From Bacteroidota bacterium (GTDB lineage Bacteria; Bacteroidota; Rhodothermia; Rhodothermales; Bin80), in assembly GCA_026709065.1 (NCBI GenBank), contig JAPOTS010000100.1:15625-79624 (forward strand): a stretch of 64,000 nucleotides of DNA, in the 5' to 3' direction. Both the position numbers and the translations under genes were made by a program. The notes under the pieces were generated by a model. The model was not told the origin of the DNA and made no database searches. It worked only from the letters and a program-made list of their open reading frames with translations. Below are positions 4,665-23,707 of this stretch, one piece after another (within the stretch, counting starts at the first letter, position 1; every line of letters starts with the position of its first letter).

Positions 4665-4686
4665 AAATGGCTTATTTGTATTTCAA

Positions 4687-5451
4687 TCAATTTGGTTCCT
4701 TGATTGAATTTTGATCATACTTCTTTTGGTCATCTATTGTTATACAACGTAACCCAAGGTACAGCAAAATAGGAACGGTCTTTTGTCGTGAAGGTCCCTG
4801 CATCTGCAATGCGGTTAGCCCAATGGAGATTGACCACGCCCCAGGAATTATTGTGTTGATCCACCAGGGAATCCGAGCAAACATAATTGAAAAAATTGTG
4901 TTTGTCAGATTAACTCCTATCAAGCGGGCTGTCCATCCAAATAACAGTGTTTTGATGAGTCCTTCAACAACAAGCCTCCCAAGGGCTTGTATCAAAACAG
5001 GTAATGCAAAAAAACCACCTGCTTTCTTTAAGAAATCCATCGCACGCTTACGCTCAACCCCAAGCGATTCAAGCATTTGCTGTTGCTCAACAAGTGAGAG
5101 TTGAGAGAACTGGTCTACGGCATAGAGGTGAACTAACTTGATAAGCATCTCTCTTTCAGTCCCTTGATTCGCCAACGGTACTTTCAAAAATCTTGCCGTG
5201 TCACGAATCATGTAACGAAAATCCACTCCAGGTTCTATACCTAAAGTCCTGCGAGAAAAATATGCAATGTTGCTACTTCCCAAGTAACGTATTTTTTCTT
5301 CAATTCCCTCACACAACGCCTTGCGATGATCACTTGACTCCACACTCATTAGATGGGCTTTGAGGTGAGAACATTGATCAAAAGGGCCCTGAATAATCTT
5401 GATGATATAGCTGTAATCGTCTCGTGTAAGACTCAATAATATGTCCTGCAT
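4687..5451 (-). CDS. Hypothetical protein with hydrophobic C-terminal half (possibly YaaW/UPF0174-like)
   Basis: 254-aa ORF with a soluble N-terminal half and glycine/hydrophobic C-terminal segments. The family assignment is a weak recollection only. Confidence 0.4.
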   Translation of the reverse strand: MQDILLSLTRDDYSYIIKIIQGPFDQCSHLKAHLMSVESSDHRKALCEGIEEKIRYLGSSNIAYFSRRTLGIEPGVDFRYMIRDTARFLKVPLANQGTEREMLIKLVHLYAVDQFSQLSLVEQQQMLESLGVERKRAMDFLKKAGGFFALPVLIQALGRLVVEGLIKTLLFGWTARLIGVNLTNTIFSIMFARIPWWINTIIPGAWSISIGLTALQMQGPSRQKTVPILLYLGLRCITIDDQKKYDQNSIKEPN

Positions 5452-5624
5452 CTAAACACAAACGTTAGTTATTCAATACGATGATTTCAATCAATTAGAA
5501 CGATGGGTATTAATCATAACAAAACTCATTTTTAATGGATTGATTCAATGATATAAGAAGATGTTTAGACAGTCTCTTTGTTACATAGTACTGACAATAC
5601 ATTCAGCTAGATAATAATTGTAAT

Positions 5625-8441
5625 CTACCATCCTGTGGTGTAGGTTAGGCGTGCAGTTGCCGTTCGACCGAGTTTAGGTGCACCAACAAACTCCCTGTGA
5701 TTACTGTCCAATGCATTATTGATTCCGAGATCAACCCTGAGTGATGAATTAATTCCATAGCCGGCTCCAATATCCATGATCAAATAGGACGGTACATCGC
5801 CTCTGTACTGCCCTGAAATAACAGGAAAGCCATCTATATAACGCCCCGACGCATTGATTGAGAACCCAGATTCAAGGTTATATTGACCTCCAAATTTAAC
5901 CTTTATCGTTGGCGCATTCATTGATAATTCTCGATCTTCTTGCTCTTCACCTAATTCAATATGATCAAAGTAATTGTCACTGATCCAAGATACATTGGTA
6001 AACACCGTCAATGCTGGGGATAGGATCGCTTGAACAGAAACATCTGCACCGAAATAAGCAACGCTTCCAAAATTAGGATACGACAACATAATTTCTGGTG
6101 ACTTTCCTTCTCCTGGGTTATTCTCATTTGGTTGTACAATCGCAATTGGCGTTGTTGGACCTGGTAGAGCAGTACCTGCGACATCCACAAGAAGTTGCCC
6201 CGCCTCTTCGGGAGTGAGTCCAAAGAGCCCAAGGGCATTTGTAATGATGGTGTTATTAGTAATTCCGTTGGAAATATCTCGGGCGAGGTCTTGCGTTAAG
6301 GTTGGAACTAATACGAACGGCGTACGAACTTGAAGGCCCCCCAAGAAATTTTTTCTGGTTGAATAATAGGCATCAATGGCGAATAGGACATTCTCATTGA
6401 TGATTCCTTTATATCCTAACTCAATGACCTGAGATATCGTTGATTGTGCAGGATTCAAATCTTCTAAATCACTCAATCCGGTTTCAATTTGTAGCGTACT
6501 TAAATTCAAGGATCCCAAAACGCCTGGGCTAAATCCATCAACAACTATTGATTCAGGGCTCAATGCAGCTTTAAGAAGTCCAATTAATGCAGGAGGTACA
6601 TCCAACCCGACACTCCGTAATTGATCACCAAGTTCTTCATCTGGTATTGCCGCTAGCCCTTGGTACATAAAATCATAAATTATCCCGGTACTGATTCCGA
6701 CAGGCGTTGGCGAACCCAGAAATGCAGGGATTAAACTGGAAGCAACCAGATCCGTTGTTGCACCCAATTTTAAATAATCAGGATTTCGTGCAAAGTTAAA
6801 GGTATTTGCTGACCCTCTAGCGCGGACGTTTAGATCCCCAGGCAGAGATGCAACGACCAAATCTACCCAGTTGGTTGTTGCTGATGGCGATGAATAGCTC
6901 CTATTATAGGTGAGTCTGAAACTAGAATTAAGTGCAGGTTTCATCACCAACCCAAATCGTGGGCTAATCTGAATTTTATCTTGGACATTATTATAATCTC
7001 CGCGTAATGCAAGAGTCAATTCAAGTCTATTGGTCAATTTAGTGGTTGACTGGGCATATAATCCGTATTCATTAATCCCATCACTGAATTCGTTACGCCC
7101 CAGTACAGTGCCCCTTGTATCAGGCCGCGTTAGTTCTACATCAGCGCCGACGATTAATCCTTGACGATCACCCAAATTGATATCATACTGTGCTTGCATA
7201 GATAATTCGGATGAATGATCAACGACAGGAGCTCCCCCATAGACATAACTATCACCCGAGTTGGCCTGATTTAAATACACTTGAGCAAAAAAACTTCCGC
7301 TGGATAGCCTTGCCTGTGCATAAGCACTGCCATAGTTCTGTGCTTGAACCGTTCCGACACCACTTAACAACGCTCCTTTGAGCCCTGAAACCCCTCCATT
7401 CAATGACAATGTAGTATTCTTCCCAGCACGAAAATCTAAATTCCCAGTCACCACATACTTATAAAATTCTGTATCTCTTTCTCCGTCGACAAAAATCTGC
7501 ACAGCATCAGCCTCATCAGGGCATTGACTAAACTGTTGAGCCATCAATAGAGAGCTTTCGCAGGATTGTAGTGCAAAATCTTTAGCCGATGAATAAGCAC
7601 CTGTCACTTTGACACCGATACGATTACTGATAACTTCTGCAATGCGTGTCTGAACATTTAATTGAGATTGTTCACCACCGCTAAGAGCAATCGTCACTCC
7701 TGGATGTGTAAATGCATCTTTTGTAATGTAATGGATCACTCCTGAATCAACCCCTGGGCCGTAGAGAGCTGAACCTGGGCCCCGCACAATTTCTATCCGG
7801 TCTATGTCTACTGATATATTGGGCATCATGCTATGAATATTGAGATTGACCGCTGGTACTCCAGTATCACGATAATCAGTCATTATATATGTAGCCCCTG
7901 AAAACGTATCGTTAAATCCTCGCAATGCCACTTCATTGCGATCAATCCCAGTCTGAGCAATATCTATGCCTGTAACATTTTTGAGCGCCATAACCGTTGA
8001 AGGCACCACTAAATGGGAGATATCTTCGGCTAACAGAACATCAATGGACGCGGGAGTATCAAGAATTTTTTCCTGCCTTCGACTTGCTGTTACCTGTAAT
8101 TGATCTAAATCTACCCCGCTAATTAATTCAATATCTAATTGATAAACTTCCTCTCCAGAATGATCAATTTCAATTTCAAAGTTTTTATACCCCGTAAACG
8201 ATACGCGTATCAAATTTTTGCCCGCTGGTAGTCCCTCCAGAGAATAATATCCTTCCTCATCAGAAGAAACTCCTTGCCCTGAATTAACATGAAGCACACT
8301 TGCCCCAAATAATGGCAAACGAGTCTCTACATCTGAAACTGTACCAGTGATTGAAATTAATTGGGCATGCGACCAAGATGGAGTCACAGATATAATAATA
8401 AATGTTGCTAGGATAGATAGTATTCTAATACTCATTATCAA
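5625..8441 (-). CDS. TonB-dependent outer-membrane receptor with signal peptide and CarboxypepD_reg-like domain; paralog of 1-2742
   Basis: Signal peptide followed by ITGTVSD...GYKNFEI (carboxypeptidase regulatory-like fold), then plug and barrel, ending TYTTGW. It is collinear with the first receptor over its full length. Confidence 0.9.
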   Translation of the reverse strand: MIMSIRILSILATFIIISVTPSWSHAQLISITGTVSDVETRLPLFGASVLHVNSGQGVSSDEEGYYSLEGLPAGKNLIRVSFTGYKNFEIEIDHSGEEVYQLDIELISGVDLDQLQVTASRRQEKILDTPASIDVLLAEDISHLVVPSTVMALKNVTGIDIAQTGIDRNEVALRGFNDTFSGATYIMTDYRDTGVPAVNLNIHSMMPNISVDIDRIEIVRGPGSALYGPGVDSGVIHYITKDAFTHPGVTIALSGGEQSQLNVQTRIAEVISNRIGVKVTGAYSSAKDFALQSCESSLLMAQQFSQCPDEADAVQIFVDGERDTEFYKYVVTGNLDFRAGKNTTLSLNGGVSGLKGALLSGVGTVQAQNYGSAYAQARLSSGSFFAQVYLNQANSGDSYVYGGAPVVDHSSELSMQAQYDINLGDRQGLIVGADVELTRPDTRGTVLGRNEFSDGINEYGLYAQSTTKLTNRLELTLALRGDYNNVQDKIQISPRFGLVMKPALNSSFRLTYNRSYSSPSATTNWVDLVVASLPGDLNVRARGSANTFNFARNPDYLKLGATTDLVASSLIPAFLGSPTPVGISTGIIYDFMYQGLAAIPDEELGDQLRSVGLDVPPALIGLLKAALSPESIVVDGFSPGVLGSLNLSTLQIETGLSDLEDLNPAQSTISQVIELGYKGIINENVLFAIDAYYSTRKNFLGGLQVRTPFVLVPTLTQDLARDISNGITNNTIITNALGLFGLTPEEAGQLLVDVAGTALPGPTTPIAIVQPNENNPGEGKSPEIMLSYPNFGSVAYFGADVSVQAILSPALTVFTNVSWISDNYFDHIELGEEQEDRELSMNAPTIKVKFGGQYNLESGFSINASGRYIDGFPVISGQYRGDVPSYLIMDIGAGYGINSSLRVDLGINNALDSNHREFVGAPKLGRTATARLTYTTGW

Positions 8442-8900: not shown

Positions 8901-10262
8901 TTATGTCCAAGGTCCCGAAATTGCCAACGTTAAGCCATCGTGCTGAATATTAACAAAAAGCGTTGTACCGTCTGGTGAAAAGGTTGCACCAGCTAGCTCT
9001 GAATGGCTTACAGCATTACGAGCAAACTTATACAATTCTCCTTCTGGTGTTACGCCAACAAGAAATTGCTCATTAGATCCATCCTCGCATACAATAAGGT
9101 CTCCCCAAGGCGTGACAGTGAGATTGTCAGCATTTTCAATCATCCCTGGATCATTGGGTTCAATAAATAATTCCAACGTATCCTCGCTAGGAGACAGCCT
9201 CCAAATCTGGCCATACTTAGCATGCCCCCCATTGGTGCAGGCAAAGTAGACCGCATCATTGCCATACCACATTCCTTCTCCACGCGCAAATCTAGCTGCA
9301 CCCTGATCAAAACCCCGAATCCTTAAATCATCTAAGGGAGCCTCAATTTCATCCATGTCTATCCACTTGACATTCATTATTGATCCTACGGTTACCGTCT
9401 GTGAATCCCAATTACGAGTATCAAGACTAGGCATTCCAATGACTTCTAAAGCCTGTAATTTCCCACCTGCTTCCAAGTTATTTGGATCCAGAGGAATAAA
9501 TCGATAGATCAAACTATCATGCGCGTCTTCTGTCTGATAAATGATATTTGTCTTTGGATCTACTGCGACTGCCTCGTGATTGAATCGCCCCATGGCTCGA
9601 ATTGGAACTGGAGGTGCAATCATTGGAGAAACACTTGCTGGAACCTGAAAGACATATCCATGATCTTTGGCTAACCCATTCCCTGCCAGATCAGTTGTTT
9701 CTTCGCATGTAATCCATGTATTCCATGGAGTTGGTCCACCTGCACAGTTACGCAAGGTGCCAGCAAGGCTTAAATACTGTGATACCAATTGCTGTGAAGC
9801 CGTATCATAAATAAAGGTTGTTGTTCCTCCAAGTGCTGGGCTTCCTTCGGCTCCAGCATCATAGAGAAGGGCTGGATCAATGCGATCAATCAGCTCATTA
9901 TTCGGGCCAAATGCTCCCATACTCGGATCTGCATTAGAGTTGACTTCATGGTTTCTAATCACGATGGTTTCACCATTATGCCCTTTGAATGTCGCCATCC
10001 CATCTGCCGCGCCAGGTACATAGAATCCATCATCCATCAAGTCATTCATTCGGGTAACGATGTTGTATGTAAAATTTTCGGGCAGGTCCATAACTCCATC
10101 TGGATCGCTGATGAGCGGGCCAAACCTATCCTTAGCTTTCGCTGAAAAACCTTGACAACCAACCAAAGAGTGAAGTCCAACAAAACCTAGTGCAAACGCA
10201 CTGGATGTCTGGAGAAATTGACGGCGTGAGGCCATTGACTTGTATGATTCAGGAGTATTCAT
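8901..10262 (-). CDS. Tat-exported PhoX-like / DUF839 beta-propeller protein (putative phosphatase)
   Basis: Twin-arginine leader SRRQFLQTSSAFALG. Body motifs (NCAGGPTPWNTWITCEE, GRFNHEAVAVDP, PDGTTLFVNIQH) are typical of the DUF839/PhoX family. Confidence 0.65.
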   Translation of the reverse strand: MNTPESYKSMASRRQFLQTSSAFALGFVGLHSLVGCQGFSAKAKDRFGPLISDPDGVMDLPENFTYNIVTRMNDLMDDGFYVPGAADGMATFKGHNGETIVIRNHEVNSNADPSMGAFGPNNELIDRIDPALLYDAGAEGSPALGGTTTFIYDTASQQLVSQYLSLAGTLRNCAGGPTPWNTWITCEETTDLAGNGLAKDHGYVFQVPASVSPMIAPPVPIRAMGRFNHEAVAVDPKTNIIYQTEDAHDSLIYRFIPLDPNNLEAGGKLQALEVIGMPSLDTRNWDSQTVTVGSIMNVKWIDMDEIEAPLDDLRIRGFDQGAARFARGEGMWYGNDAVYFACTNGGHAKYGQIWRLSPSEDTLELFIEPNDPGMIENADNLTVTPWGDLIVCEDGSNEQFLVGVTPEGELYKFARNAVSHSELAGATFSPDGTTLFVNIQHDGLTLAISGPWT

Positions 10263-11175
10263 GATTTAGGGATAAGTTTTCAATACAGTGATGCCAAGAA
10301 GTAAGCTCAGATTAAGATATGGCTTCGGACATCATAAACGCTAAACATCAATAGCATGTTGCTTTATGGACCTAATTTGATTCTTGAACCCACAGTGCTA
10401 AAGCATATTTCCCTAAATTCCCATCATGCACCTTATGATGATGCGTCAGCGAATTGCTAAACTCATTACTGTATACTTTACTGCATGTGACTCTTCATAG
10501 TGTCAGCGTTGTGTTCAATAATTTGATGTGATTCAATAACATCCTGTTCAAAATGATTTAATTTAGATCAATTAACTTTTAATTCGTGACACAAGAAATG
10601 AATCTATATGATAATATATCACAGAGTTACGTGTGGAATGGCCGAAGAACGATGATATGGTTGCTAATGTGAGCCTTGATGAGATAGCGTTAATTCTGGG
10701 GAATCAGTCTGAATATGTTCATCAGATTAACCATCTAGCAAATTGATTCAAAGAAGTTATTGGATTGAAATGATAGGCTTGTGATCTTAGATGCAGACGA
10801 TCTATTATGCGTTGGCAAGTGGGTGAATCTGACCCGATTTTGAACCATGATGTCCATGGTTCACCATATCATTTCATCAATTGATATTACACTTTATGGT
10901 TGATCAGTGTTTACGGTTAATGTCAATCAGAAGACTCCAGTATGAGTTTTCCAAGAAAGTCAATAATTGTGTAGGAATGAATATATTTAGATACGATGTG
11001 GTTTCCCTTGTTGTTGCTTTCTGTTGAAGAGGCACTAATATCAGTCCGATCAGTTTTATTTTTACAAGATCTCTGTTAAAGTCATCAAAAGATGTTAATT
11101 TTGTAGAAATTATCTCAGAATAATCAATTAGTATCATGATCCTATAGGTGCAAGATTTAATGCATCATAGTTATC

Positions 11176-12432
11176 GTGAAATCTTCAAGATTTACCAACC
11201 GTCATCTTATGAGTCAAAAAAAATTCATTGATCTTTTCGCTGGCTGTGGTGGTCTGTCCCTTGGACTAGTCAAGTCTGGTTGGAATGGTGTTTTTGCTAT
11301 TGAAAAATCAGAAGACGCGTTTAAGACATTTCACACTAATTTTTGTCAAGAACATTCAAAACTGCATTTTAAGTGGCCTTCTTGGCTACCCCTTAGGGCC
11401 ATGACAACCCAACAATTACTCACGCAATTTCCTAAACAGCTCAACGACCTCAAAGGAAAGATTGATATGATCACTGGGGGACCTCCATGTCAGGGATTTT
11501 CATTGGCAGGTCTCCGTAATCCTAATGATCCAAGAAATGAACTCATACAAGATTATATTGCAGTGGTCAGAATTGTTCAGCCAAAATTAGTACTCTTAGA
11601 AAATGTCAATGGAATTAACATGAAGTTTCCTCATCAGGATTCCCCTTATTCAATAAAGATTCAAAATCTACTGAAATCTTGTTCTGATCATGGTTACAGA
11701 GTTCATTCATCCATGTTGAATGCATCTGCCTTTGGGGTACCCCAGATGCGCAGTCGTTACGTCATGATTGCCATTCGTGGAGACATGCCCAAATTATTTA
11801 ATAATCCTTTCGATTCATTAAGCGACGCATTACCTCGTTTTCTTAAAGTAAGAGGACTCACTGGCGCAGAAACGATGGTGCGAGACGCGATAAGTGACTT
11901 AGAAATCAACGATCGAAAACTTAAATCCAGCGTTGATACACCTGGCTTCTTCCAGATCCCCTACGATGAAAAACATTCTCTCTCCACTTATCAACAGTTG
12001 ATGCGTCAAGACGTTGGTAAAAATTTTGAACCAAATAGCCTACGTCTTGCAAATCACCGAAAAGAAACCCAGTCTCGTTTCCAGAGAATTTTGCATGAAT
12101 GTCCCAAAGGAGTCTGCATGTCAAAAGAGGATCGTAAGAAATTTGGGTTAAAGAAACAATCTCTTACACCACTGCATCCCGAAAAACTAGCCGGAACAGT
12201 AACAACCATTCCTGATGATATGATTCACTATCACGAGCCAAGAGTTCTCACGGTTCGCGAAAATGCTCGACTTCAGTCATTTCCTGACTGGTTTAATTTT
12301 GAAGGGAAATATACCACGGGAGGGCATCGTCGCAGGCATGAATGTCCCCGCTATACACAGGTTGGAAATGCCGTTCCACCTCTGATGGCCGAAGCAATTG
12401 GTGAAACTCTACTCCATTTATTGGCCTCATGA
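11176..12432 (+). CDS. dcm: DNA (cytosine-5)-methyltransferase
   Basis: All canonical C5-MTase motifs are present in order: I FAGCGGLSLG, IV GGPPCQGFS, VI LLENV, VIII QMRSRYVMIA, IX RENARLQSFPDWF, X GNAVPP. The likely real start is the ATG at 11209 (MSQKKFIDLFAGCGG). The stop overlaps the next start (ATGA at 12429-12432). Confidence 0.95.
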   Translation: MKSSRFTNRHLMSQKKFIDLFAGCGGLSLGLVKSGWNGVFAIEKSEDAFKTFHTNFCQEHSKLHFKWPSWLPLRAMTTQQLLTQFPKQLNDLKGKIDMITGGPPCQGFSLAGLRNPNDPRNELIQDYIAVVRIVQPKLVLLENVNGINMKFPHQDSPYSIKIQNLLKSCSDHGYRVHSSMLNASAFGVPQMRSRYVMIAIRGDMPKLFNNPFDSLSDALPRFLKVRGLTGAETMVRDAISDLEINDRKLKSSVDTPGFFQIPYDEKHSLSTYQQLMRQDVGKNFEPNSLRLANHRKETQSRFQRILHECPKGVCMSKEDRKKFGLKKQSLTPLHPEKLAGTVTTIPDDMIHYHEPRVLTVRENARLQSFPDWFNFEGKYTTGGHRRRHECPRYTQVGNAVPPLMAEAIGETLLHLLAS

Positions 12433-14735
12433 ACGAATCTAAGAATCTTAGATTTATCGCCCATGCGCGCTTGAAAGATATTATTGGACGAGGTCTCATT
12501 AATAATGACAACATTGCAATAATTGAGCTGATCAAGAATTCAAGAGATGCAGAATCTGAGCATGTTTCCATTAAATTTCATAAACCGGGTATTCTATATA
12601 TCTCTGATCATGGGGAGGGAATGTCCATGGAGGATATACGATATAAATGGCTCAATATTGCTTATTCCGCTCGCAAAAATGCAGATCCTAATCACCCTAA
12701 AATATATGCGGGTAATAAAGGAATTGGACGATTCTCGTGTGACCGTCTTGGCAAAAAACTGATCTTGTATACACGAGCTAAGAACGGTCAATTCATTACA
12801 TTAGAAATCAACTGGCCTGATTTTGAGCAGGACAGTCGTGATATAGAAATTGGACACATTGAGACGGAGGCTAGGTTCATCACACCCAAAGAATTTCAAC
12901 AACAGACAAACATTAAACCTTTTGATCATGGTACGGTACTTGCCATCAGTCATCTAAGATCTGATTGGACCGAGGATAAACTCAAGTCACTAAGACGGGA
13001 ATTAGAGAAGTTTGTGATTGCCCCCGCTGAACGGTTTAAAGTTGAACTTTACCACCATGGGTTTGATCAAGATCATGAGATCAATGGTCCCATTGAGAGC
13101 AAGATTTTTGAACTGCTAGGTTTTAGAACATCATCCATCAGTGCCAAAATAGATGAAACCGGAAACGAAATTCATATATCGCTCCGACATGATGGTGACT
13201 ATATCTTTGAATCTACTGAGAAAAACTCATATTCTCAACTCAAGAATATTAAGGCAATTATCTACTTTCTCAATCAACCCGCGAAGGCTTTCTTCAAACG
13301 CTATACTGGATACCATTCTGTTGAATATGGATCTATTTTTTTCTTCTTGAATAAATTCAGAGTATTCCCTTATGGCTCAGAAGGGGATGATTGGCTTGGC
13401 ATTGATCGCCGCCGACAACAGGGACAGATGCGCTTTTTTGGTACCCGTGATCTCGTTGGCTTCATTCAAGTGGATGACCTTGAAGATCAGTTTATTCCGG
13501 TGTCCAGTAGAGAAGGACTGATTCACAATACGGCGTACCATGAACTTACATCCATAAGCGCTGATGTACCCTCATCGCTTGATGATACAATGCAGTATGG
13601 CTTATTCCATAAAATCATGAGAAAACTGGAAAAATTCGTGGTTAATGGCCTAGACTGGGACCGAATTAAACGATCCGGCATCACTGAAGAAAAATTGATT
13701 ACTGGCGAGTTTGAATATCTGCATACCCATAGACCTGTATTTGAGACAATCGACTCCATTATTAAGCTGCGTTCCTCAACTGAGAGTATAATCGATTATA
13801 AAATCAATCTCTCACATCTTTCCAAAATTGCTCATCAGGAGACAGAGCAATTTGAGAAATTAGTTGAAGGATTGAAAGAAAAATTTGCAGGATCCTCTAT
13901 TGATCAAATCAAACCACATGAAAAACGTAATCTCTCAAAATTTATTAGTCGTCTGGCGAAGGAATTAGCTGCTAAAGAGCAAACCACCGTAGAATTGGAA
14001 AAAAAAGAAGCAGCCGCAACAAAGAAGTTAGCCACCGAACAGAAGCGTCGCTTATTTGCCGAATTTCAAAGTAGTGTTGATCAAAGTCGCATGCTACAAC
14101 TGCATCATCAGATTAACTTAATTGCAGGTTCATTATGGAAGCGATTCGATGGTATCGCACGTCGAGAACGCAAAGATCCTGATCAGTATTCAAAGGGAGA
14201 TTTACTTGAAGTAATTCACTCGGGCATTTTTGAGATTAATCGTATAAGAAACGTTACGAAGCTTGCATTGAAAGCCGATTTTGACCTTATGACCAATAAG
14301 GTTAAGGTAGATCTAATCCAATTTATTCAGGAATATCTCGAAAATTACAAAGAAATTCTCTCGGCATGGAATCTAAAAATGAGATTTACTAACGAAGACT
14401 CGGTGCAACTCATCAAATCATTTCGCCCCATTGAGGCTACTCTTCTTATTGACAATTTATTGGTCAATTCTGGCAAAGCTGATGCCGATACAGTGTATGT
14501 TAATGTTTTTAAGCACACCGGGAAAACAATCATTGAATTTGTTGATAATGGCAACGGATTAACGGATCGCTTTGAGTATTCGGATCTTTTCGAAAAAGGT
14601 ATATCTACGACATCGGGGGCAGGAATTGGGCTGAATCATTCCCGCGAGATTGTTCTGAATCTTGGCGGTATAATTCAGATTTCTAATGCGAAAAACAATG
14701 GTGCGAAAGTCACGATATCGTTTGACAACACATGA
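12429..14735 (+). CDS. Dual Bergerat-fold (GHKL) protein: N-terminal MORC/Hsp90-like ATPase module, central coiled coil, C-terminal histidine-kinase-like DHp+CA module
   Basis: N-terminal module: ELIKNSRDAE (ExxxNxxDA N-box), DHGEGMS (DxGxGM), GNKGIGRFS (GxxGxG). C-terminal module: LQLHHQINLIAGS (candidate H-box, H559/H560), DNLLVNSGKA (N-box, about 117 aa after the His), VDNGNGL (G1), LFEKG (F), GAGIGLNHS (G2). A Lys/Glu-rich coiled-coil stretch lies around LAKELAAKEQTTVELEKKEAAATKK. Confidence 0.75.
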   Translation: MNESKNLRFIAHARLKDIIGRGLINNDNIAIIELIKNSRDAESEHVSIKFHKPGILYISDHGEGMSMEDIRYKWLNIAYSARKNADPNHPKIYAGNKGIGRFSCDRLGKKLILYTRAKNGQFITLEINWPDFEQDSRDIEIGHIETEARFITPKEFQQQTNIKPFDHGTVLAISHLRSDWTEDKLKSLRRELEKFVIAPAERFKVELYHHGFDQDHEINGPIESKIFELLGFRTSSISAKIDETGNEIHISLRHDGDYIFESTEKNSYSQLKNIKAIIYFLNQPAKAFFKRYTGYHSVEYGSIFFFLNKFRVFPYGSEGDDWLGIDRRRQQGQMRFFGTRDLVGFIQVDDLEDQFIPVSSREGLIHNTAYHELTSISADVPSSLDDTMQYGLFHKIMRKLEKFVVNGLDWDRIKRSGITEEKLITGEFEYLHTHRPVFETIDSIIKLRSSTESIIDYKINLSHLSKIAHQETEQFEKLVEGLKEKFAGSSIDQIKPHEKRNLSKFISRLAKELAAKEQTTVELEKKEAAATKKLATEQKRRLFAEFQSSVDQSRMLQLHHQINLIAGSLWKRFDGIARRERKDPDQYSKGDLLEVIHSGIFEINRIRNVTKLALKADFDLMTNKVKVDLIQFIQEYLENYKEILSAWNLKMRFTNEDSVQLIKSFRPIEATLLIDNLLVNSGKADADTVYVNVFKHTGKTIIEFVDNGNGLTDRFEYSDLFEKGISTTSGAGIGLNHSREIVLNLGGIIQISNAKNNGAKVTISFDNT

Positions 14736-15649
14736 AACTTTCGTACGATATTCTTTGGGTTGACGACAATCTTGATTCCATTGCGGAAGACCGAAGGACT
14801 ATTGAAGAATTTCTTGAGGGTTTTGGGATTTACGCCAATATATCACCTGTGACAAATTCAGATGACGATTTATTGAATGAGCATATTCACAATCCTGATC
14901 TTGAAATTCTTTTAGTTGATTATCACATGGACGACATGGATGGAGCAGATTTAATTAATCGTATTCGTCAAACGAATCATGTGTATTTGCCCGTCATCTT
15001 TTACTCTTCAAGTCCTCTTGAAGTCTTACTCAAAGCGGCAAATGAAGCACAACTTGATGGTGTATACATTGCACAGAGAGACTTTTTGATCCAGAAATTT
15101 CAAGATGTCGCTAAAAGTCTTCTCAACAAGGAACATACCATCAAGCGTATCCGCGGTTTATTGATGGAGGAAGTCAGTGAGATTGACGAAAAGTTACAAG
15201 AGATCTTCCGTATGATATGGAATGGGCTCTCGGGTAATAACAAGAAAGAATTGATGATTTATCTCAAAGATAAAATCATTCAGCAGCGGGCAGATAGTGC
15301 CAATAAAAAGCTTAAAAACTTCCCCAACACCGTTGATGATTTTTCACAGCATATGAGTGAGCGATTTTTATCAAAATCATACGATACTTATACCAGATGT
15401 AGAATCGTAAATAAAATGCTCGGATTCAAGAATAATAATTTAGGTGAGTATAAACAAGTTTTTAAGGAGTTCTTTAACCATGGTAACGAGGATTCCATTA
15501 ATCGTCTTCGAAATAATTATGCTCACACTCCGCTTCGGACTTTGAAACAAGCTCACTCTTTAGAGAACTGTGTGAAAATTCGTAAAGAATTACATCGCCA
15601 ACTCAAGAATATTAATCGTATCATTGATTATCTGTCTGCAGAACCTTGA
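14732..15649 (+). CDS. Receiver (REC) domain protein with C-terminal alpha-helical HEPN-like domain (putative phosphorylation-gated RNase effector)
   Basis: REC motifs: WVDDN (acidic pocket D11/D12), ILLVDYHMDDMDG (phosphoacceptor D63), VIFYSS (S/T position). The C-terminal roughly 180 aa look helical and carry RLRNNYAH (R260-H265, nt 15509-15526), which matches the HEPN Rx4-6H / RNxxAH signature. The start overlaps the upstream stop (ATGA at 14732-14735). Confidence 0.6.
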   Translation: MKLSYDILWVDDNLDSIAEDRRTIEEFLEGFGIYANISPVTNSDDDLLNEHIHNPDLEILLVDYHMDDMDGADLINRIRQTNHVYLPVIFYSSSPLEVLLKAANEAQLDGVYIAQRDFLIQKFQDVAKSLLNKEHTIKRIRGLLMEEVSEIDEKLQEIFRMIWNGLSGNNKKELMIYLKDKIIQQRADSANKKLKNFPNTVDDFSQHMSERFLSKSYDTYTRCRIVNKMLGFKNNNLGEYKQVFKEFFNHGNEDSINRLRNNYAHTPLRTLKQAHSLENCVKIRKELHRQLKNINRIIDYLSAEP

Positions 15650-16320
15650 GCAATTCTTGGTTCAAATTCATTGGTGTAATTTATGACTACCTATCCGCTA
15701 TTTATTACAAGAGATTCATATATTCAACATGGATTTTCCAAGTTGTCCTGGTCGCTTATCTTTATCCAATCACCATGTTGGTCGTTGATCCGTCTTAACG
15801 TTTCTTCTGTTAGAGGGTTTTTAGTCAAACTAGCGATTTAGATGTGATTAAACTTGTTTACAATCTTGACAAAAATCATCCTGTTATCAAGACATGGTGT
15901 TCATGTAGCAACGGCTTGATCGTTTGTTGATATCTATACGAAGATCCCACACAGGATCATTGATTTGAGAAAAGTTATTCGAGTCAAATGCGTTGATCGC
16001 CATAGTAACGGGTTTGAAAATTAGGTTATGCCCTCCTATCAATACAAAGGGCCCCATCAGATCCATTCCAACGATACGTTTGGACGATTGAGTCCATACC
16101 AATTCTCAAATTTTAGCAAAAACAGCTATTACGGGCAAAATAAAGGCAATGAATCAATGAGGCGTAACTTTGATAAATTTCTAGATTCAGATGTAATGTC
16201 CATAGTTGACGGTATACCAAATAATATACCCCTTAGGATCTTAAAACCAAATTTGGTAGTATCGTATGGATAGGGTCTTCAGATCAGTTAATGATTCTCT
16301 GATGATGACCCTGAGAAGAA

Positions 16321-18207
16321 TTAGGGACTGATTCTATCCATTCTCGCAATCCAAAGCCCACTATTTAGATCCGAAGTGTAGATATGCCCCTTGAAAATCT
16401 GCGCACCCCATGTCATTGGCCATCCAGGAACCATGGATTGATCATCGGTCGTTAAAATATGAGCAATTTCTCGACCTTGATCATACAGATTCCCGCGGAG
16501 TTCTCCACTAATATCAACGACTCGCAATCCCCCTTGATAATACCCTACATATAATCGCTCATCTTCAACCCATATATTATGTGCACCTGCATCAGGGACT
16601 TCGTATCTTGCCACTTCAATTGGAGCCTCCATATTTGATACATCCAATATATGGATATAACCTCTGGCATCCAATGGCTTGCCCGCATCCCAATTGTCAG
16701 GGAAAATTTCGTCTCCAACAAATAAATATTGACCATCTCTCCATGCAACATGCGTATGACCCTCTGGATAAGAAAGACGACTCACCATGATTGGAACCGT
16801 AGGAGTTCCACCATGCGTTCCAGCTCCAACATCAAGGATTACAACCCCATCATCCCAATAGGATAGATAGGCATATCCATCTTGGACAATGACATCATGG
16901 AGTGTCTTATCCTCTTTATTCAAACCCCATCTACCAACCTCCATCGGATTTTCTCGGTCACTGATGTCAATGATATGCAATTCACTTGTTCCATTATGAC
17001 ACGCATAAACAAGATCCTCCTCAATCCATACATTATGCACACCTCCAGTCACTGTTCTGGAATACTCCGATAGAATTGTCGGATGTGCAGGGTTGGTAAG
17101 ATCTAAAATGACAATTCCATTACGCCGATTAGATGCTCCTTCACGTGTAATCACTGCAATCTCATTGCTATGATGAATCTTCACATCGTTGATCCTGCGA
17201 GCATCCACCCGAATGGAGTCCATTAAAACGGGGGTGTCTGGAGTGGTCACATCAAAAACCTTCATCCAATCATACATAAACGTGCCGACATATGCATAAT
17301 CACGACCATCAATACCTTCAAAAGCCCACATGTCCCCAGAATGATGATGAGCAATTGCTCCCCGACCTGCAATTGACAACGTTTCCTGATGAATCCGCTC
17401 TTCAACTGGTAAAATGAGTGTTCTCTGAATATCAATTCCAATATGTGCAGTAATGGTATAATCCAATGCCTGATCTGCCACAAATATCCCCTCACCCCCC
17501 TCATTAGTCAAGTAAAATCCATCACCAGAGACTTCCCACCGAGGATATATTCCATCAACTATATCACCATTTTCATCCGTTGCTTGGACACGAAAACGAA
17601 CGACATCACCTTGTCGTACAATGTAACGATTCTGTGCAATTTGATAAGACACAGAAGGATTTTCACGAACGAAAACCTCAACATTTGTTGAGTGCCCATG
17701 AGCTTGAACCGAAACGACTGCCGAGCCAGGGCTCTGAGCATGAATGTATCCTTGCTTAGTAACCCTCGCCACTGATACATCATTACTTTTATAGCGAATA
17801 CGCCCCTCTATGGCTTGACCGTCAAGTGTTACTTTGATTGGCATACTCGTTTGGGAAAGAATAAACGGTGCAGACAAGCTCGCAACCAAATTAGCCTCCC
17901 GATTCTTCTCTACTGTAATCTCTGCATATCCAGGTTTTCCACCAAGAACAACAACGAGTATCGCCGTGCCGGGTGAATGAGCCTCAACAATTCCGAATTC
18001 GTTCACCGTTGCAATGCTAGATTCTGCAATATGCCATCTTGGGCTCAACCCAGCGACTACTTGGTCATCTTGATCATATGCTATGCCAGAAAATATGAAT
18101 GTATCTCCAACCTCTATTGAGGCTGACTTCGGTGAAATTTCAACTTTATCTGGAAGCTCTAATCCAGTATTAAGTTGCATGAACATTCCTAAAAGAATCA
18201 ACACCAT
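16321..18207 (-). CDS. Secreted protein with Big_2 Ig-like domains and an LVIVD-repeat beta-propeller
   Basis: Two Big_2-like segments (ATVNEFGIVEAHSPGTAILVV; VARVTKQGYIHAQSPGSAVVSV). These are followed by repeated LVIVD-type strands (GIVILDLTNP, ELHIIDISD, GVVILDVG, YIHILDVSN, GLRVVDISG). Confidence 0.6.
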   Translation of the reverse strand: MVLILLGMFMQLNTGLELPDKVEISPKSASIEVGDTFIFSGIAYDQDDQVVAGLSPRWHIAESSIATVNEFGIVEAHSPGTAILVVVLGGKPGYAEITVEKNREANLVASLSAPFILSQTSMPIKVTLDGQAIEGRIRYKSNDVSVARVTKQGYIHAQSPGSAVVSVQAHGHSTNVEVFVRENPSVSYQIAQNRYIVRQGDVVRFRVQATDENGDIVDGIYPRWEVSGDGFYLTNEGGEGIFVADQALDYTITAHIGIDIQRTLILPVEERIHQETLSIAGRGAIAHHHSGDMWAFEGIDGRDYAYVGTFMYDWMKVFDVTTPDTPVLMDSIRVDARRINDVKIHHSNEIAVITREGASNRRNGIVILDLTNPAHPTILSEYSRTVTGGVHNVWIEEDLVYACHNGTSELHIIDISDRENPMEVGRWGLNKEDKTLHDVIVQDGYAYLSYWDDGVVILDVGAGTHGGTPTVPIMVSRLSYPEGHTHVAWRDGQYLFVGDEIFPDNWDAGKPLDARGYIHILDVSNMEAPIEVARYEVPDAGAHNIWVEDERLYVGYYQGGLRVVDISGELRGNLYDQGREIAHILTTDDQSMVPGWPMTWGAQIFKGHIYTSDLNSGLWIARMDRISP

Positions 18208-18265: not shown

Positions 18266-19660
18266 ATGAACTTTAGCATGCCTTCAAGCCAACAAAGAGG
18301 CCTCTTCACACATGAAGCACGTAAAGTCTCACTCCTGTGTATCCCAATCGTAGCCACTCAACTAGGACAGATAAGTAATGGGTTTATTGATGTCATCATG
18401 GTTGGGCGTCTAGGTCCCCCCGAATTAGCCGGTGTTGCTCTCGGCAATGCCACATATTTTCTCTTTGCTCTGATCGGAATTGGAATCTTGTTAGCTGTCG
18501 GGCCGCTGGTCTCCCAAGCTTATGGGGCAAAAAACTATACCCCAATTAGTCGGACCGTTCGTCAGGCAGTTTGGCTAGCCACACTGATGTCTATCCCAGT
18601 GATGTTCATCATGTGGAACGCACGATTACCTTGGAATCTAATGCAACAAGATGCGGCCACAATTACTTATGCAGAAGGGTATCTAAGAGCGGCTGTCTGG
18701 GGATTTCTTCCATTTATGTTATTCAATGGACTCCGAAATTTTGTTGAAGCTATTAGCCGCCCCTTTCCTGTGACAATCATTATAGTACTGGGAATACTGC
18801 TCAATATCGTTGCAAACTATGGCTTGATGTATGGTAACTTCGGCCTTCCAGAACTTGGATTGAATGGGACTGGATGGTCCACATGCATTGTTCACTGGTT
18901 TATGTTCATCAGCATTGCTGTTTACGTCACATTCAAGGATCCTTTTCGGTCGTATGAAGTGCTGAAAAAACTCCGAGTTCCAGACTTGGTCTATTTCCGA
19001 GAACTTTTGCGAGTTGGCCTTCCTATCGGAGGATCCATCGGTTTGGAAGTTACGTTGTTTAGTGCTACTGCATTTCTGATCGGTACATTTGGGGCAATAC
19101 CCATTGCAGCCCATCAAATTGCGATTCAATCTGCTGCAATTGCATATATGGTTCCACTGGGTATTGGATTGGCCACCTCTGTGCGTGTAGGGCAAAATAT
19201 TGGAGCTAAGGATCCTGGAGCTGCCGCTGTATCAGGATTCACTGGAATTGGAATATCTTTTGTATTTATGATCTGCACTGCACTCTTATTTCTCTTTGCT
19301 CCACAATTGGTTGCTGCTGTGTATTTAGACCTGAATGATCCAGCTAATTTTGAAACCGCCACGCAAGTGATTCGCTTCTTAGCAATTGCCTCAATTTTTC
19401 AGATTTTTGATGGCGTACAAGCCACTGCACTTGGTGCTTTACGAGGGTTAAAAGACACGCGAATCCCAATGATTTTAGGGTTTATTGCCTATTGGCTCAT
19501 TGGCATGCCTACAGGGCTAAGCCTTGGATTTGGATTAAACATCGGACCAGAAGGATTTTGGTGGGGACTTGTCGTTGGTCTTTTTGCCGCATCAATTATG
19601 TTTTTCTATCGCTTTCATCGTATGACTCAAAAACTTCCCAATGCTTCGATACCCGACTGA
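18266..19660 (+). CDS. MATE-family multidrug/sodium efflux transporter
   Basis: About 460 aa and 12-TM-like, with the two-halves architecture and typical MATE N-terminus (P.V..QL.Q...GF.D..MVGRLG), plus GALRGLKDTR in the second half. Confidence 0.8.
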   Translation: MNFSMPSSQQRGLFTHEARKVSLLCIPIVATQLGQISNGFIDVIMVGRLGPPELAGVALGNATYFLFALIGIGILLAVGPLVSQAYGAKNYTPISRTVRQAVWLATLMSIPVMFIMWNARLPWNLMQQDAATITYAEGYLRAAVWGFLPFMLFNGLRNFVEAISRPFPVTIIIVLGILLNIVANYGLMYGNFGLPELGLNGTGWSTCIVHWFMFISIAVYVTFKDPFRSYEVLKKLRVPDLVYFRELLRVGLPIGGSIGLEVTLFSATAFLIGTFGAIPIAAHQIAIQSAAIAYMVPLGIGLATSVRVGQNIGAKDPGAAAVSGFTGIGISFVFMICTALLFLFAPQLVAAVYLDLNDPANFETATQVIRFLAIASIFQIFDGVQATALGALRGLKDTRIPMILGFIAYWLIGMPTGLSLGFGLNIGPEGFWWGLVVGLFAASIMFFYRFHRMTQKLPNASIPD

Positions 19661-19929: not shown

Positions 19930-20577
19930 ATGCCGCAAATATTTCCCAAAAAATCTAACCTACTCCCTCATGTTTCGCTCGGTGCTTTGATGGGGAGCGG
20001 TTTGGTGGCTGTTTTTTTAGTTTGGTACTATTTTTCTCCCGAATACACTGATGTTGGTTATGCTCCAGAACAACCCGTATCCTATAGCCATCGGGTCCAT
20101 GTAGATCAATTAGGCTTGGATTGTAGATACTGCCACAGTTTTGTAGAAGTAGCTGATATGTCCAATGTTCCTGCGACTGAAACCTGTATGAATTGTCACG
20201 AAGTCGTTCTTCCCCAAAGCACAGAATTGATTCCCGTGCGTGCGAGTTGGGCTGATGGATCATCCATACCTTGGGTAAAAATTCACCAGCTACCTGATTA
20301 CGCACAGTTCAGCCATGCCGCTCATGTCAACAATGGTGTTGGTTGCGAAACATGTCATGGAAGAGTTGATAATATGGATGTTGTCCACTTAGTTGAACCA
20401 CTTTCAATGGGCTGGTGCCTTGAATGTCACAGAGAACCTGAAAAATATTTGCGACCCAATGAGGAAATTACAACTATGGGGTATGTTCATAGTGACGGAT
20501 TTCTTGAAGACAACTTAAACCGCATCAAGCAGGAAGGAATCCGACCTCCAACAAATTGCAGTGCCTGCCACTATTAG
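19930..20577 (+). CDS. actA: Alternative Complex III subunit ActA (pentaheme cytochrome c)
   Basis: N-terminal membrane anchor and five CxxCH motifs (CRYCH, CMNCH, CETCH, CLECH, CSACH). It is the first gene of an act-type cluster. Confidence 0.85.
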   Translation: MPQIFPKKSNLLPHVSLGALMGSGLVAVFLVWYYFSPEYTDVGYAPEQPVSYSHRVHVDQLGLDCRYCHSFVEVADMSNVPATETCMNCHEVVLPQSTELIPVRASWADGSSIPWVKIHQLPDYAQFSHAAHVNNGVGCETCHGRVDNMDVVHLVEPLSMGWCLECHREPEKYLRPNEEITTMGYVHSDGFLEDNLNRIKQEGIRPPTNCSACHY

Positions 20578-23500
20578 TCTGTTACGCTATGATATCGCTT
20601 CCTGTAATTGACGCTCCTTCGGAAAGTATAGGACATAAGATGTGGCGTAGTCAGCCCCATCTACATCAGAATCCAGAGCTCACAGAGTTAGCCTCAGAGG
20701 AACTCCTACCCGGCGCGAGTGACCCACCTTCAGGGACTAATCGTCGTCATTTTATGCAACTACTTGGCGCATCAATGGCACTAGCTGGCCTGGCTGCTTG
20801 TCGTCGTCCAGTAGAATATATTATGCCTTTTTCAGATCGCCCTGAGGAACTCATACCAGGTGTGCCCTTGAATTATGCTACGACAATGAATTTTCGTGGG
20901 ATTGCGCGCCCACTATTGGTAAAAAGCTATGACGGAAGGCCAATTAAAATTGAAGGTAATCCAGACCATCCGAATGCCTCAGGTGCCTCAGGAGTTTATG
21001 AACAAGCCTCGCTACTTCAACTGTATGATCCCGATCGCTCACAACAAATACTGCGTTCTGGCTCCCCTTCAACATGGAGCGATGTTTTAGATCTCTGTCA
21101 ACAGGCACAATCAGCAAACCGTAGAATCGCTGTATTAGCAGCTCCAGATAGTTCTCCATCTCGTGCCCGACTGCGTAGCCAACTTGAAAATCAGTATGAC
21201 AATTTTCAATGGATAGACTATCGCAGTGAGGGCGATGATACGCAAACGCTTGGCCTACAGATGGCTTACGGCCTACCATTAAGACCCGTATATGATTTTG
21301 AGAATGCTGACATCATCGTCAGCTTAGATGCTGATTTTCTTGGCCCCCATTCCAAGAATGGAAACTGGAACACCTATTCCTTTGCTCAAGGTCGTAGACT
21401 CTCTGATGCCGAAGATCAGATGAGCCGCTTGTATGTCATTGAAAGCACGTATACCTCTACAGGTACGATGGCCGATCACCGTAAAAGAATGCGATCGGAT
21501 GAAATATCCAATATTGCTAGTCAACTTGCGACGGCTTTGAATATCTTCTCTGGTGCCCAGCCCAACTCATTAATATCTCAAATCGCAGAAGACCTTCGCA
21601 ATTCTGATGGACGTTGTATCGTGATTGCAGGAGAGACCCAGCCCGCAGAAGTCCACGCGTTATGTGCACAAATTAATCAAAGTTTAGGTGCTATTGGGAC
21701 AACGATCACACTTCTTGACACGGGCGAACCCGTTCAGTCTCCCCAATCAGAGACACTCCCCGCACTTGTAGAGGATATTAATTCTGGTGAAATTGATCTA
21801 CTGTTGATCTTAGGGGTCAATCCAGTCTATGATGCTCCCCTTGCATTGAACTTTCAATCCGCATTGGAGCAAGTAACAGATACCGTCCATCTTGGGCTTC
21901 ATGTAGATGAAACTGCGCAATCCTGCACATGGCATATTCCTCAAACCCACTACCTTGAGGCTTGGGGGGATGCACGCTCCTGGGACGGAACACTGACCCC
22001 TGTTCAACCCTTAATTGCCCCACTTTACGAAGATTGCCATAGTGAAATTGAACTGCTTGGCGCTCTCTCCAACGGCGAACCAATCAATGGCTATGACTTT
22101 GTTCGTCAAACATGGAATTCAGTCATTGATTCTGAGGATTTTGAGACGGCATGGCGACGTATCTTGCATAATGGGTTCCTTGATGATACAGGATTTGAAT
22201 CTGTAACTCCTACTCCCTCATTCAATGGGCAACTTCCTGCTCTAAATACTGGTTTAGAGCTTGTGATGCGTCTTGATGCGACTGTGCTTGATGGAAGTTT
22301 TTCCAATAATGCATGGTGCCAAGAACTCCCTGATCCAATTACTAAAATTGTTTGGGATAATGTTGCTGTCATCAGTCCTCAAACTGCACATGATTATGGA
22401 CTGGTGTGTGAGTATTCTAAGGGCCATTATATCTCTGACATCATCACTCTGTCTGCCAATGGGCACCAAGTTGACTTACCTATTTGGATCTTACCTGGGC
22501 ATGCTAACAATTCAATTTCAGTAACTCTGGGGTATGGTCGTGACATTTCAACGAAACGCCCCAATAGGGACACCCCCTTCTGGGATAAAGATGATGAAAC
22601 AGATATCTATGCTAATGGCGCCTTATCTACGGGAATTGGGGGCAATGTCTCTGGACTTAGAAACATGCATGGAGAGCTTGTGATCTTCGATGTTGAACTC
22701 ATAGCCACGGGACGTAAATGGACGATCGTCACTACTCAGGATCACGGGATTCTTGACACCGAAGCCCGCCCATTGATTCGAATGGCGACGCTTGATGAAT
22801 ACCGCCAAGACCCCGCATTCGCACTTCAAGACGAAGCACCCACTCCAAGTTCGGATATAAAAACAGATTTTCAAGATTATCCAGAGCTCTGGAAAGACTC
22901 CCATCCTGCTAAAACCCCATCATTCCGGGATAGTGATTACTGGAAAAACCAATGGGGCATGGCCATTGACCTCAATACCTGCACGGGTTGCAATGCATGT
23001 ATCATAGCATGTCAGGCAGAGAACAATATTCAGGTTGTAGGTAAAAAAGAAGTCGGTAACGGTCGAGAATTGCACTGGCTCAGAGTTGATCGATATTTTG
23101 TCACCGAAGGTGGAACAGATCTTGATGCGGATCCACAGATTGTGATGCAACCGATCCCCTGCCAACATTGCGAAAATGCCCCATGTGAATCTGTCTGCCC
23201 AGTTGCTGCCACCGTGCATTCACCCGACGGCACCAATCAGATGATCTATAATCGGTGTATCGGAACGCGCTATTGCGCCAATAACTGTCCCTATAAAGTC
23301 CGACGGTACAATTTTTATAATTGGTCCAAGACCATTCCTGAAACCGTCCAGATGGCTCAGAATCCCAATGTGTCCATTCGCTTCAGGGGTGTGATGGAAA
23401 AATGCTCATTTTGTATCCAAAGAATTCGAGAAACACAAAAAAGGGCTGGACTGGAAAAACGACCATTGCACCGCGATGAGGTTGCCACGGCTTGCCAACA

Positions 23501-23684: not shown

Positions 23685-23707
23685 GCCAAATAACATTCTA
23701 ATTCACC

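Follow-up and report, generated by a model that had tools for sequence, protein, structure and literature searches.

We describe a three-gene cassette in a 64,000-nucleotide stretch of DNA from a Bacteroidota bacterium of the order Rhodothermales (lineage Bin80; contig JAPOTS010000100.1, positions 15,625 to 79,624; the whole stretch is referred to here as the window), and in particular its third gene, which lies at 14732–15649 on the forward (+) strand and encodes a 305-residue protein with a receiver (REC) domain joined to an all-alpha domain that resembles the HEPN ribonucleases (RNases). The two genes upstream encode a C5 DNA cytosine methyltransferase and a paraMORC-type ATPase joined to a histidine kinase. 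We infer, with the balance of the evidence leaning modestly in this direction, that the third gene is the effector of an immune cassette akin to restriction-modification (R-M) systems, in which a phosphorelay to a predicted cell-stopping RNase takes the place of the enzyme that cuts DNA. An identical protein is annotated publicly just as 'response regulator [Bacteroidota bacterium]'. The nearest relatives are from Rhodothermales metagenome-assembled genomes (MAGs), and 78 close homologs were recovered.

The reading frame is genuine, with an ATG start at 14732 and a stop codon at 15647–15649, both confirmed on the sequence. An original prediction, made from the DNA and its translations, had described the product as a receiver fused to a putative HEPN RNase, and the residues that it named are all where it placed them: D11 and D12 in ILWVDD, D63 in LLVDYHM, the F90-Y91-S92-S93 segment, and the RNNYAH motif at 15509–15526. 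The receiver domain occupies residues 1–134 (14732–15133) and contains D11/D12, D63 (codon 14918–14920), S92 and R116. It passes the Pfam model PF00072 marginally, scoring 30.5 bits against a gathering cut-off of 30.2 (E = 4.4e-7), and the same model matches 31/31 close and 76/97 distant members of the family. A family profile search of the PDB retrieves CheY-type receivers. The AlphaFold2 (AF2) model of the full-length protein, with a predicted local distance difference test score (pLDDT) of 86, has a (beta-alpha)5 fold across residues 4–134, where pLDDT is 80–97, and Foldseek aligns the model to CheY structures with a target-normalized TM-score of ~0.7 and a root-mean-square deviation of 3.4–3.8 Å. 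The assignment of a receiver is thus borne out by both profile and fold. Foldseek searches of the full-length model against the PDB and BFVD returned receiver matches only, the REC domain dominating the comparison.

Conservation of the receiver was assessed in 97 cluster representatives that are 18–34% identical to the query. D63 is present in all 97, and the other pocket positions are conserved as D/E11 (96/97), D/N12 (96/97), S/T92 (95/97) and R/K116 (90/97). R116 is the first residue after the predicted beta-5 strand, and is Arg in 83/97 and Lys in 7/97 of the representatives. The original prediction noted that the usual Lys after beta-5 was not evident; this stands for the query, which has no Lys there, but a basic residue is kept at the position. 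The receiver appears to be atypical, with Arg for Lys, and not defective, and the N-terminal half of the protein is, judging from its sequence and model, a real receiver with an intact phosphoacceptor pocket.

The HEPN-like domain spans residues 137–303 (15140–15640). Its first helix is conserved as R141-G-L-L-M-E-x-V-S-E-x-D (R141 codon 15152–15154), its last helix contains R284, and the candidate HEPN Rx4H catalytic motif, R260-N-N-Y-A-H265, is read from the codons cga aat aat tat gct cac. An Rx4-6H motif alone is little evidence, because about one such string is expected by chance in a protein of 305 residues and a second copy, R77-x5-H83, is present inside the receiver. However, 31 homologs with identities as low as 28% all share R260, N261, Y263 and H265, together with R141-G-L-L ... 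S149-E150-x-D152, C280 and R284. In the 97 more distant representatives the sole invariant columns are D63, R79, R141, R260 and H265, with A/G264 (97/97), G142 (96/97), N261 (95/97) and R284 (94/97) near-invariant. The original prediction had staked its HEPN assignment on the conservation of R260 and H265 among homologs, and both are retained in 97/97. An Arg-Asn...small-His signature that persists across 18–34% identity is, at the level of sequence, a catalytic-site pattern. The HEPN consensus described in a 2013 census is Rx4-6H with Asn after the Arg (Anantharaman et al., PMC3710099), and R260-N261-x-x-A264-H265 conforms to it, with a polar residue of the N/D/H set after the Arg.

A HMMER search with the C-terminal domain alone against 1.84 billion cluster representatives (E ≤ 1e-3) matched 278 of them; among the 150 matches listed, most are ~300–330 residues long with the domain at the C-terminus, and the rest are shorter and apparently partial. 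As the original prediction had it, the domain has no helix-turn-helix (HTH), none being detected by Pfam or NCBIfam in the query or by Pfam in the homologs.

Profile comparisons point to HEPN families. A homolog that is 47% identical to the query (P0033) matches RiboL-PSP-HEPN (PF18735) over residues 136–276, a span of 141 residues corresponding to profile positions 23–163 of 191, with an E value of 7e-6, or 1.8e-6 when the C-terminal domain is used alone; the match runs from the conserved first helix to past the RNNYAH motif. PF18735 matches were seen in 5/31 and 4/22 members, HEPN_MAE_28990 (PF18737) in three members (best E = 3.5e-4), Abi_2 (PF07751) in one (E = 2.4e-3), HEPN_Apea (PF18739) in four (E = 0.06), and the PADLOC model CARF_HEPN in two. 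Other Pfam families found on the C-terminal half mostly hit 1–3 members each and have unrelated names that point to noise. A PADLOC match to OloA (E = 9.2e-5) was dismissed, as it was found in 1/31 members only and Olokun is listed among nuclease-NTPase systems. The AF2 models of the C-terminal domain contain helices only, with pLDDT from 83 (isolated) to 86. A profile search of a 5.8-billion-protein set with a diverse C-terminal alignment recovered REC-fused relatives only, with no bridge to stand-alone HEPN proteins. In none of the profile or structure searches was the C-terminal region placed in a fold other than HEPN, the outcome that the original prediction had named as contrary.

The first gene of the cassette (11176–12432, +) encodes a Dcm-type C5 DNA cytosine methyltransferase, with matches to PF00145 (E = 1.9e-60), TIGR00675 (6.7e-47) and PADLOC MTase_II (1.6e-83). 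Its open reading frame (ORF) is listed from a GTG at 11176, although the ATG at 11209 (MSQKKFIDLFAGCGG) is the likelier start. The methylase stop overlaps the kinase start in an ATGA at 12429–12432, and the kinase stop overlaps the regulator start in a second ATGA at 14732–14735; a 4-bp overlap of this form is the usual sign of translational coupling.

The second gene (12429–14735, +) encodes a 768-residue protein with a paraMORC-type GHKL ATPase at its N-terminus (HATPase_c_3, residues 28–169, E = 3.8e-22) and a histidine-kinase transmitter at its C-terminus (HATPase_c, residues 671–766, E = 2.7e-14). The N-terminal ATP-binding module (12510–12935; PF13589) has E33/N37 in the N box, D60xGxG64 and G95xKGxGRFS103, all invariant in 17 orthologs, and the first 190 residues of the protein resemble the restriction enzymes BbrUII and HgiDII (NF050001, E = 3.5e-22). 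The predicted phosphoacceptor of the kinase is His560 (codon 14106–14108) in the H box LQLHHQINLIAG, ~115 residues upstream of the kinase N box and invariant in the same orthologs. So too are the motifs of the CA domain (14439–14726; PF02518), namely D675/N676/N680 (N), D706xGxG710 (G1) and G730xGxGL735 (G2), and in all 143 of the 768 residues are invariant across the 17 orthologs. The C-terminus aligns to HK853 (2c2a) in the PDB, and Pfam, NCBIfam and PADLOC detected in the protein neither a nuclease nor an HTH nor a transmembrane feature. The protein appears from its sequence to be a soluble predicted sensor and phosphodonor with a complete histidine-kinase core, and it has at least 1,448 homologs. 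The claim that the operon has no DNA endonuclease also held: Pfam, NCBIfam and PADLOC detect no restriction endonuclease or nuclease domain in any of the three proteins, which comprise the C5 methylase, two GHKL modules with the kinase core, and the REC plus C-terminal domain.

The cassette was compared across 21 distinct loci, these being the window and loci from Sphingobium, Sphingomonas, Neomegalonema, Algimonas, Rhizobiaceae, Hyphomonadaceae, Gammaproteobacteria, Pirellula, Rhodothermales and gut Firmicutes. The kinase and regulator genes are adjacent in 21/21, and a C5 methylase gene is directly upstream on the same strand in 17/21. At L016 the methylase gene is nearby on the opposite strand, and at L011 the methylase is from a different lineage. 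Firmicutes copies on gut and rumen contigs (L032, L034 and L036) have the same three-gene cassette amid defense or mobile islands, with type III R-M, RloB+AAA_21, GmrSD, Vsr, phage integrases, IS21 and IS66 as neighbors. The cassette ranges from Rhodothermales through Proteobacteria and Planctomycetes to gut Firmicutes, and is often found in defense or mobile islands. A search of viral contigs returned no relatives.

Several individual loci have features of their own. The regulators of L032, L034 and L036 are distant REC-HEPN-like proteins of ~328 residues with no Pfam annotation, one cluster of which has 616 member sequences. The copy in a Rhodobacteraceae MAG (L019:5767–7854) is decayed, with a truncated kinase and a regulator split over two frames. 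At L004:5557–8933 a thioredoxin gene and an AddAB-like helicase-nuclease come before the kinase-regulator pair and TerB_N/TerB_C genes come after it; the methylase-less pair of L017 is at 4666–7909. On a 9.6-kb metagenome contig, a predicted protein of 1057 residues (P0382) has a C5 methylase fragment (PF00145 profile positions 132–323) joined to a GHKL-kinase; the two are either genuinely fused or joined by reading through a frameshift.

Distant relatives of the kinase are present on plasmids, at L031:5007–9460 (Campylobacter jejuni p15597A-2) and L030:5001–8223 (Enterobacter mori); the Campylobacter plasmids bearing them are of the conjugative pTet type. These sister kinases have the H box VLHEGR. 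The REC protein that comes after each of them ends in another kind of C-terminal domain, not HEPN, in which there is no Rx4-6H motif but instead a conserved P[AS]CD and PFLKDI[VI]A[RK]FS.YYARQG.P, with no Pfam match. A dcm gene adjoins the Campylobacter sister cassette on the opposite strand, and an AbiJ-NTD4 gene is near the Enterobacter one; hhalign comparison of the family profile with the AbiJ-NTD4 protein from the plasmid locus gave no signal. On its sequence, the plasmid regulators' C-terminal domain looks like an alternative effector. The C-terminal domain swaps between related cassettes, as is typical of defense effectors, which supports reading the regulator described here as an effector.

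A number of results weigh against this interpretation. The query itself has no HEPN match in Pfam at E ≤ 1, and all of the HEPN matches in its homologs are under the Pfam gathering score, the best of them (P0033 to PF18735) reaching 26.5 against 28.4 bits; we have for this reason not filed the 305-residue protein in RiboL-PSP-HEPN, which is the nearest named family. The HEPN structures that the original prediction expected from Foldseek did not appear, as the isolated C-terminal model found none in the PDB and returned generic helical bundles with a best E value of 0.27, none of these being a significant match to any fold. The RNNYAH motif closes a short predicted helix (256–265), ahead of a long terminal helix; it does not clearly open the last core helix, as it had been expected to. 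When the C-terminal domain was compared with the PDB by sequence and by profile, the result was noise plus a 22-residue, motif-length match to HepS (E = 0.32). Elsewhere in the system, an Arg occupies the position of the canonical receiver Lys, PADLOC v2 has no matching system and none of its two-component defense models matches the cassette proteins, and L004 and L017 have no C5 methylase within 7 kb. Since these two loci lack a linked methylase, methylation sensing cannot be obligatory, and methylation cannot be the sole input.

Taking both sides together, we consider it quite likely that the C-terminal domain is homologous to HEPN. The invariance of R141, R260, N261, H265 and R284 and the weak profile matches suggest that it forms its own family within the HEPN superfamily, nearest to RiboL-PSP-HEPN, Abi2 and MAE_28990. 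The HEPN reading of the original prediction is supported but not proven, the assignment being founded on sub-threshold homology together with motif invariance.

Cassettes of similar composition were described in 2021 as C5-methylase / HATPase_c_3-DHp-HATPase_c / response-regulator-like (RR-like) sets, for which the families PF19191 and PF19192 were created (Bellieny-Rabelo, Pretorius & Moleleki, Genome Biol Evol, PMC8011034). That study proposes a regulatory role tied to R-M systems, reports that the Pectobacterium locus is induced in planta, and discusses the selfish behavior of R-M systems; HEPN, RNase, effector toxicity and abortive infection are nowhere mentioned in it, and no effector was recognized. 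These Response_reg_2/HEF_HK cassettes share with the present one an upstream C5 methylase, a soluble kinase with HATPase_c_3, DHp and HATPase_c, a neighboring RR-like protein in which an Asp is conserved, R-M contexts, and overlapping taxa. They differ in the H box, which has His followed by an acidic residue (Glu/Asp) whereas H559-H560-Q561 is found here (LQLHHQ), and in the regulator, the published RR-like query being 600 residues long without a recognized second domain, compared with 305 residues here. Membership of PF19191 and PF19192 was rejected, as neither model matches the cassette proteins at E ≤ 1.

Detocs offers a tested precedent for an abortive defensive phosphorelay, in which a kinase His passes its phosphoryl group to a receiver fused to a swappable cell-stopping effector, and defense is lost when either the His of the kinase or the Asp of the receiver is mutated (Rousset et al. 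2023, bioRxiv 10.1101/2023.01.24.525353). The likeness is confined to this REC-effector logic. Detocs consists of a TPR-kinase (DtcA), a buffer receiver (DtcB) and a REC-effector (DtcC) that is mostly a PNP ATP-nucleosidase, with no methylase or GHKL/MORC sensor reported, and the cassette proteins lack a TPR domain and are not accompanied by a gene for a receiver on its own. HgiDII and BbrUII are also paired with C5 methylases, and their N-terminal GHKL ATPase matches the first 190 residues of our kinase (PADLOC REase_II, 5.2e-8). However, the resemblance covers the ATPase head only (NF050001 positions 14–198 of 659), the remainder of the protein here being a middle region and the histidine-kinase core, and no endonuclease domain of the kind that accompanies the methylase in a type II R-M system was detected in the cassette.

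The HEPN RNases of the 2013 census (Abi2/AbiD/AbiF, RiboL-PSP-HEPN, MAE_28990, RloC/PrrC and Ymh-paraMORC) are likewise all-alpha, with an invariant Rx4H motif, Asn after the Arg, and R-M-linked operons (PMC3710099). The census describes Ymh-family HEPN domains fused to paraMORC ATPases in R-M neighborhoods, and lists no receiver-HEPN fusion. In the present cassette, by contrast, the HEPN-like domain is on the receiver and the paraMORC is on the separate kinase protein, with similarity below the curated thresholds of the named families. Full-text literature searches for a receiver-HEPN architecture found no paper, and papers on CoCoNuT, BREX and type III CRISPR name REC and HEPN in unrelated contexts only. 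The original prediction had presented phosphorylation gating of a HEPN nuclease as a new means of control. No earlier receiver-HEPN report was found, but phosphorelay control of an effector is already known from Detocs, and the sister cassette was published in 2021, so the claim has to be moderated. The sister family and Detocs partly anticipate the finding, and the new part is the predicted receiver-gated HEPN effector within a methylase-linked paraMORC-kinase cassette.

A working scheme for the cassette would be as follows. The methylase would mark host DNA, and the paraMORC head, which resembles the ATPase head of the HgiDII and BbrUII enzymes, would sense DNA that is foreign or unmethylated, or another cue of infection, switching kinase autophosphorylation on His560. 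The phosphoryl group would then move from His560 to Asp63, and the resulting change in the receiver would release or dimerize the HEPN domain. HEPN RNase sites are usually composite, formed by a dimer, and so dimerization is probably the control. The paired Rx4H sites would cut RNA (tRNA, mRNA or rRNA) without metal ions, such that translation stops and the infection is aborted. Phosphorylation could either activate or restrain the RNase. In its most specific form, the proposal is that a MORC-type GHKL ATPase reads out cytosine methylation and drives a His-Asp phosphorelay to a HEPN RNase, tying epigenetic self/non-self discrimination to abortive infection without DNA cleavage; we put this forward tentatively, as a real possibility that is nonetheless doubtful.

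Other explanations of the same parts must be considered. One is that the output is not catalytic, the C-terminal domain being a helical module that binds RNA, DNA or protein and is perhaps a degenerate HEPN, in an ordinary two-component system that tunes R-M or other genes. We think this unlikely, though it deserves serious attention. It accords with the R-M-linked regulation and the in planta induction in Pectobacterium reported for the sister family (PMC8011034), with the Foldseek results, in which the fold did not confirm an active HEPN site, and with the existence of non-catalytic HEPN domains; the latter, however, typically lose the Rx4-6H motif (PMC3710099). The Arg/Asn/His triad is invariant at 18–34% identity here, which is the pattern of a catalytic site and not of a binding surface. 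Nor was an HTH or other DNA-binding domain detected, the operon has no cognate restriction enzyme to regulate, and the effector-like swapping of the regulator's C-terminal domain between sister cassettes argues in the same direction. It is highly doubtful that the C-terminal domain is something other than HEPN, such as an HPt-like bundle using H265, a nucleotide- or phosphate-binding site, or another unrelated helical domain. In its favor, Foldseek returned generic four-helix bundles only, the HEPN matches are sub-threshold and present in a minority of members, and an invariant His in a helical bundle beside a receiver recalls REC-HPt relays. The HPt signature is HxxKG, though, whereas RNxxAH, with Asn after the Arg and a small residue before the His, is that of HEPN; neither Hpt (PF01627) nor any other non-HEPN family recurs among the 150 members scanned, and the best HEPN match starts at the first conserved helix, runs past the motif and covers 141 residues.

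The remaining alternative concerns the purpose of the cassette. Post-segregational killing is known from type II R-M systems, and the three genes could similarly be a selfish addiction module in which the paraMORC-kinase monitors host methylation and, once the methylase is lost or diluted, the phosphorelay sets the HEPN toxin free and the segregant dies. The tight linkage and translational coupling of methylase, kinase and regulator, the apparent methylase-kinase fusion P0382, the association with mobile elements, the conjugative plasmids bearing sister cassettes, and the R-M selfishness discussed in the 2021 paper (PMC8011034) are all consistent with such a module. Against this, L004 and L017 keep the kinase-regulator pair without a linked methylase, and the methylase lineage has been swapped in L011. 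As the main role of the cassette we regard addiction as quite unlikely, although post-segregational killing would account for these components just as well, and addiction and defense are not mutually exclusive.

In the window the cassette is located between a PhoX alkaline phosphatase gene (8901–10262, −) and a gene for an LVIVD-repeat/Big_2 protein (16321–18207, −), from which it is separated by non-coding flanks of ~0.9 kb (10263–11175) and 0.7 kb (15650–16320). The G+C content of these flanks is ~0.35, compared with 0.43–0.45 in the neighboring genes, suggesting that the cassette is a horizontally acquired island of ~6 kb. A search for flanking repeats, direct or inverted, or att-like sites gave none beyond short chance-level matches, no tRNA or integrase was seen, and promoter and terminator scans at the cassette were not above shuffled expectation. 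Further out are a TonB-dependent receptor gene with CarboxypepD_reg (5625–8441, −) and a MATE efflux pump gene (18266–19660, +); as the neighbors are housekeeping or envelope genes, the cassette is not part of a larger defense island in the Bin80 genome. A 37-residue ORF upstream (10633–10746, +; …VSLDEIALILGNQSEYVHQINHL…) resembled, on visual inspection, one half of an XRE-type HTH controller, but was rejected as it has no Pfam match and no BLAST similarity to the HTH_3 gene (E = 1e-10) that lies upstream of dcm in the Sphingobium locus (L001:4225–4428). Beyond the efflux pump, an Alternative Complex III-like set (19930–25123, +) is ordinary respiratory machinery unrelated to the cassette. 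It includes a multihaem cytochrome c7-type protein, the one product of the set scanned against Pfam, and, as named from their translations, a putative 1042-residue molybdopterin-oxidoreductase/FeS subunit and a putative 471-residue NrfD-like membrane subunit.

The known controls of HEPN toxins include antitoxins, AMPylation and cyclic oligoadenylates. If the interpretation given here is true, HEPN toxins would also be gateable by aspartyl phosphorylation, and this would be the first receiver-gated HEPN nuclease. The system is small, with three genes, soluble proteins and clear sites for point mutants at H560, D63, R260 and H265. Confirmation would provide a mechanism for a widespread cassette that is now annotated just as 'ATP-binding protein' and 'response regulator', and a defined biochemical output for bacterial paraMORCs. 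It would mean that bacterial MORC-like ATPases can be sensors that drive a kinase, and that self-marking of the R-M type can be coupled to a suicide response at the level of RNA.

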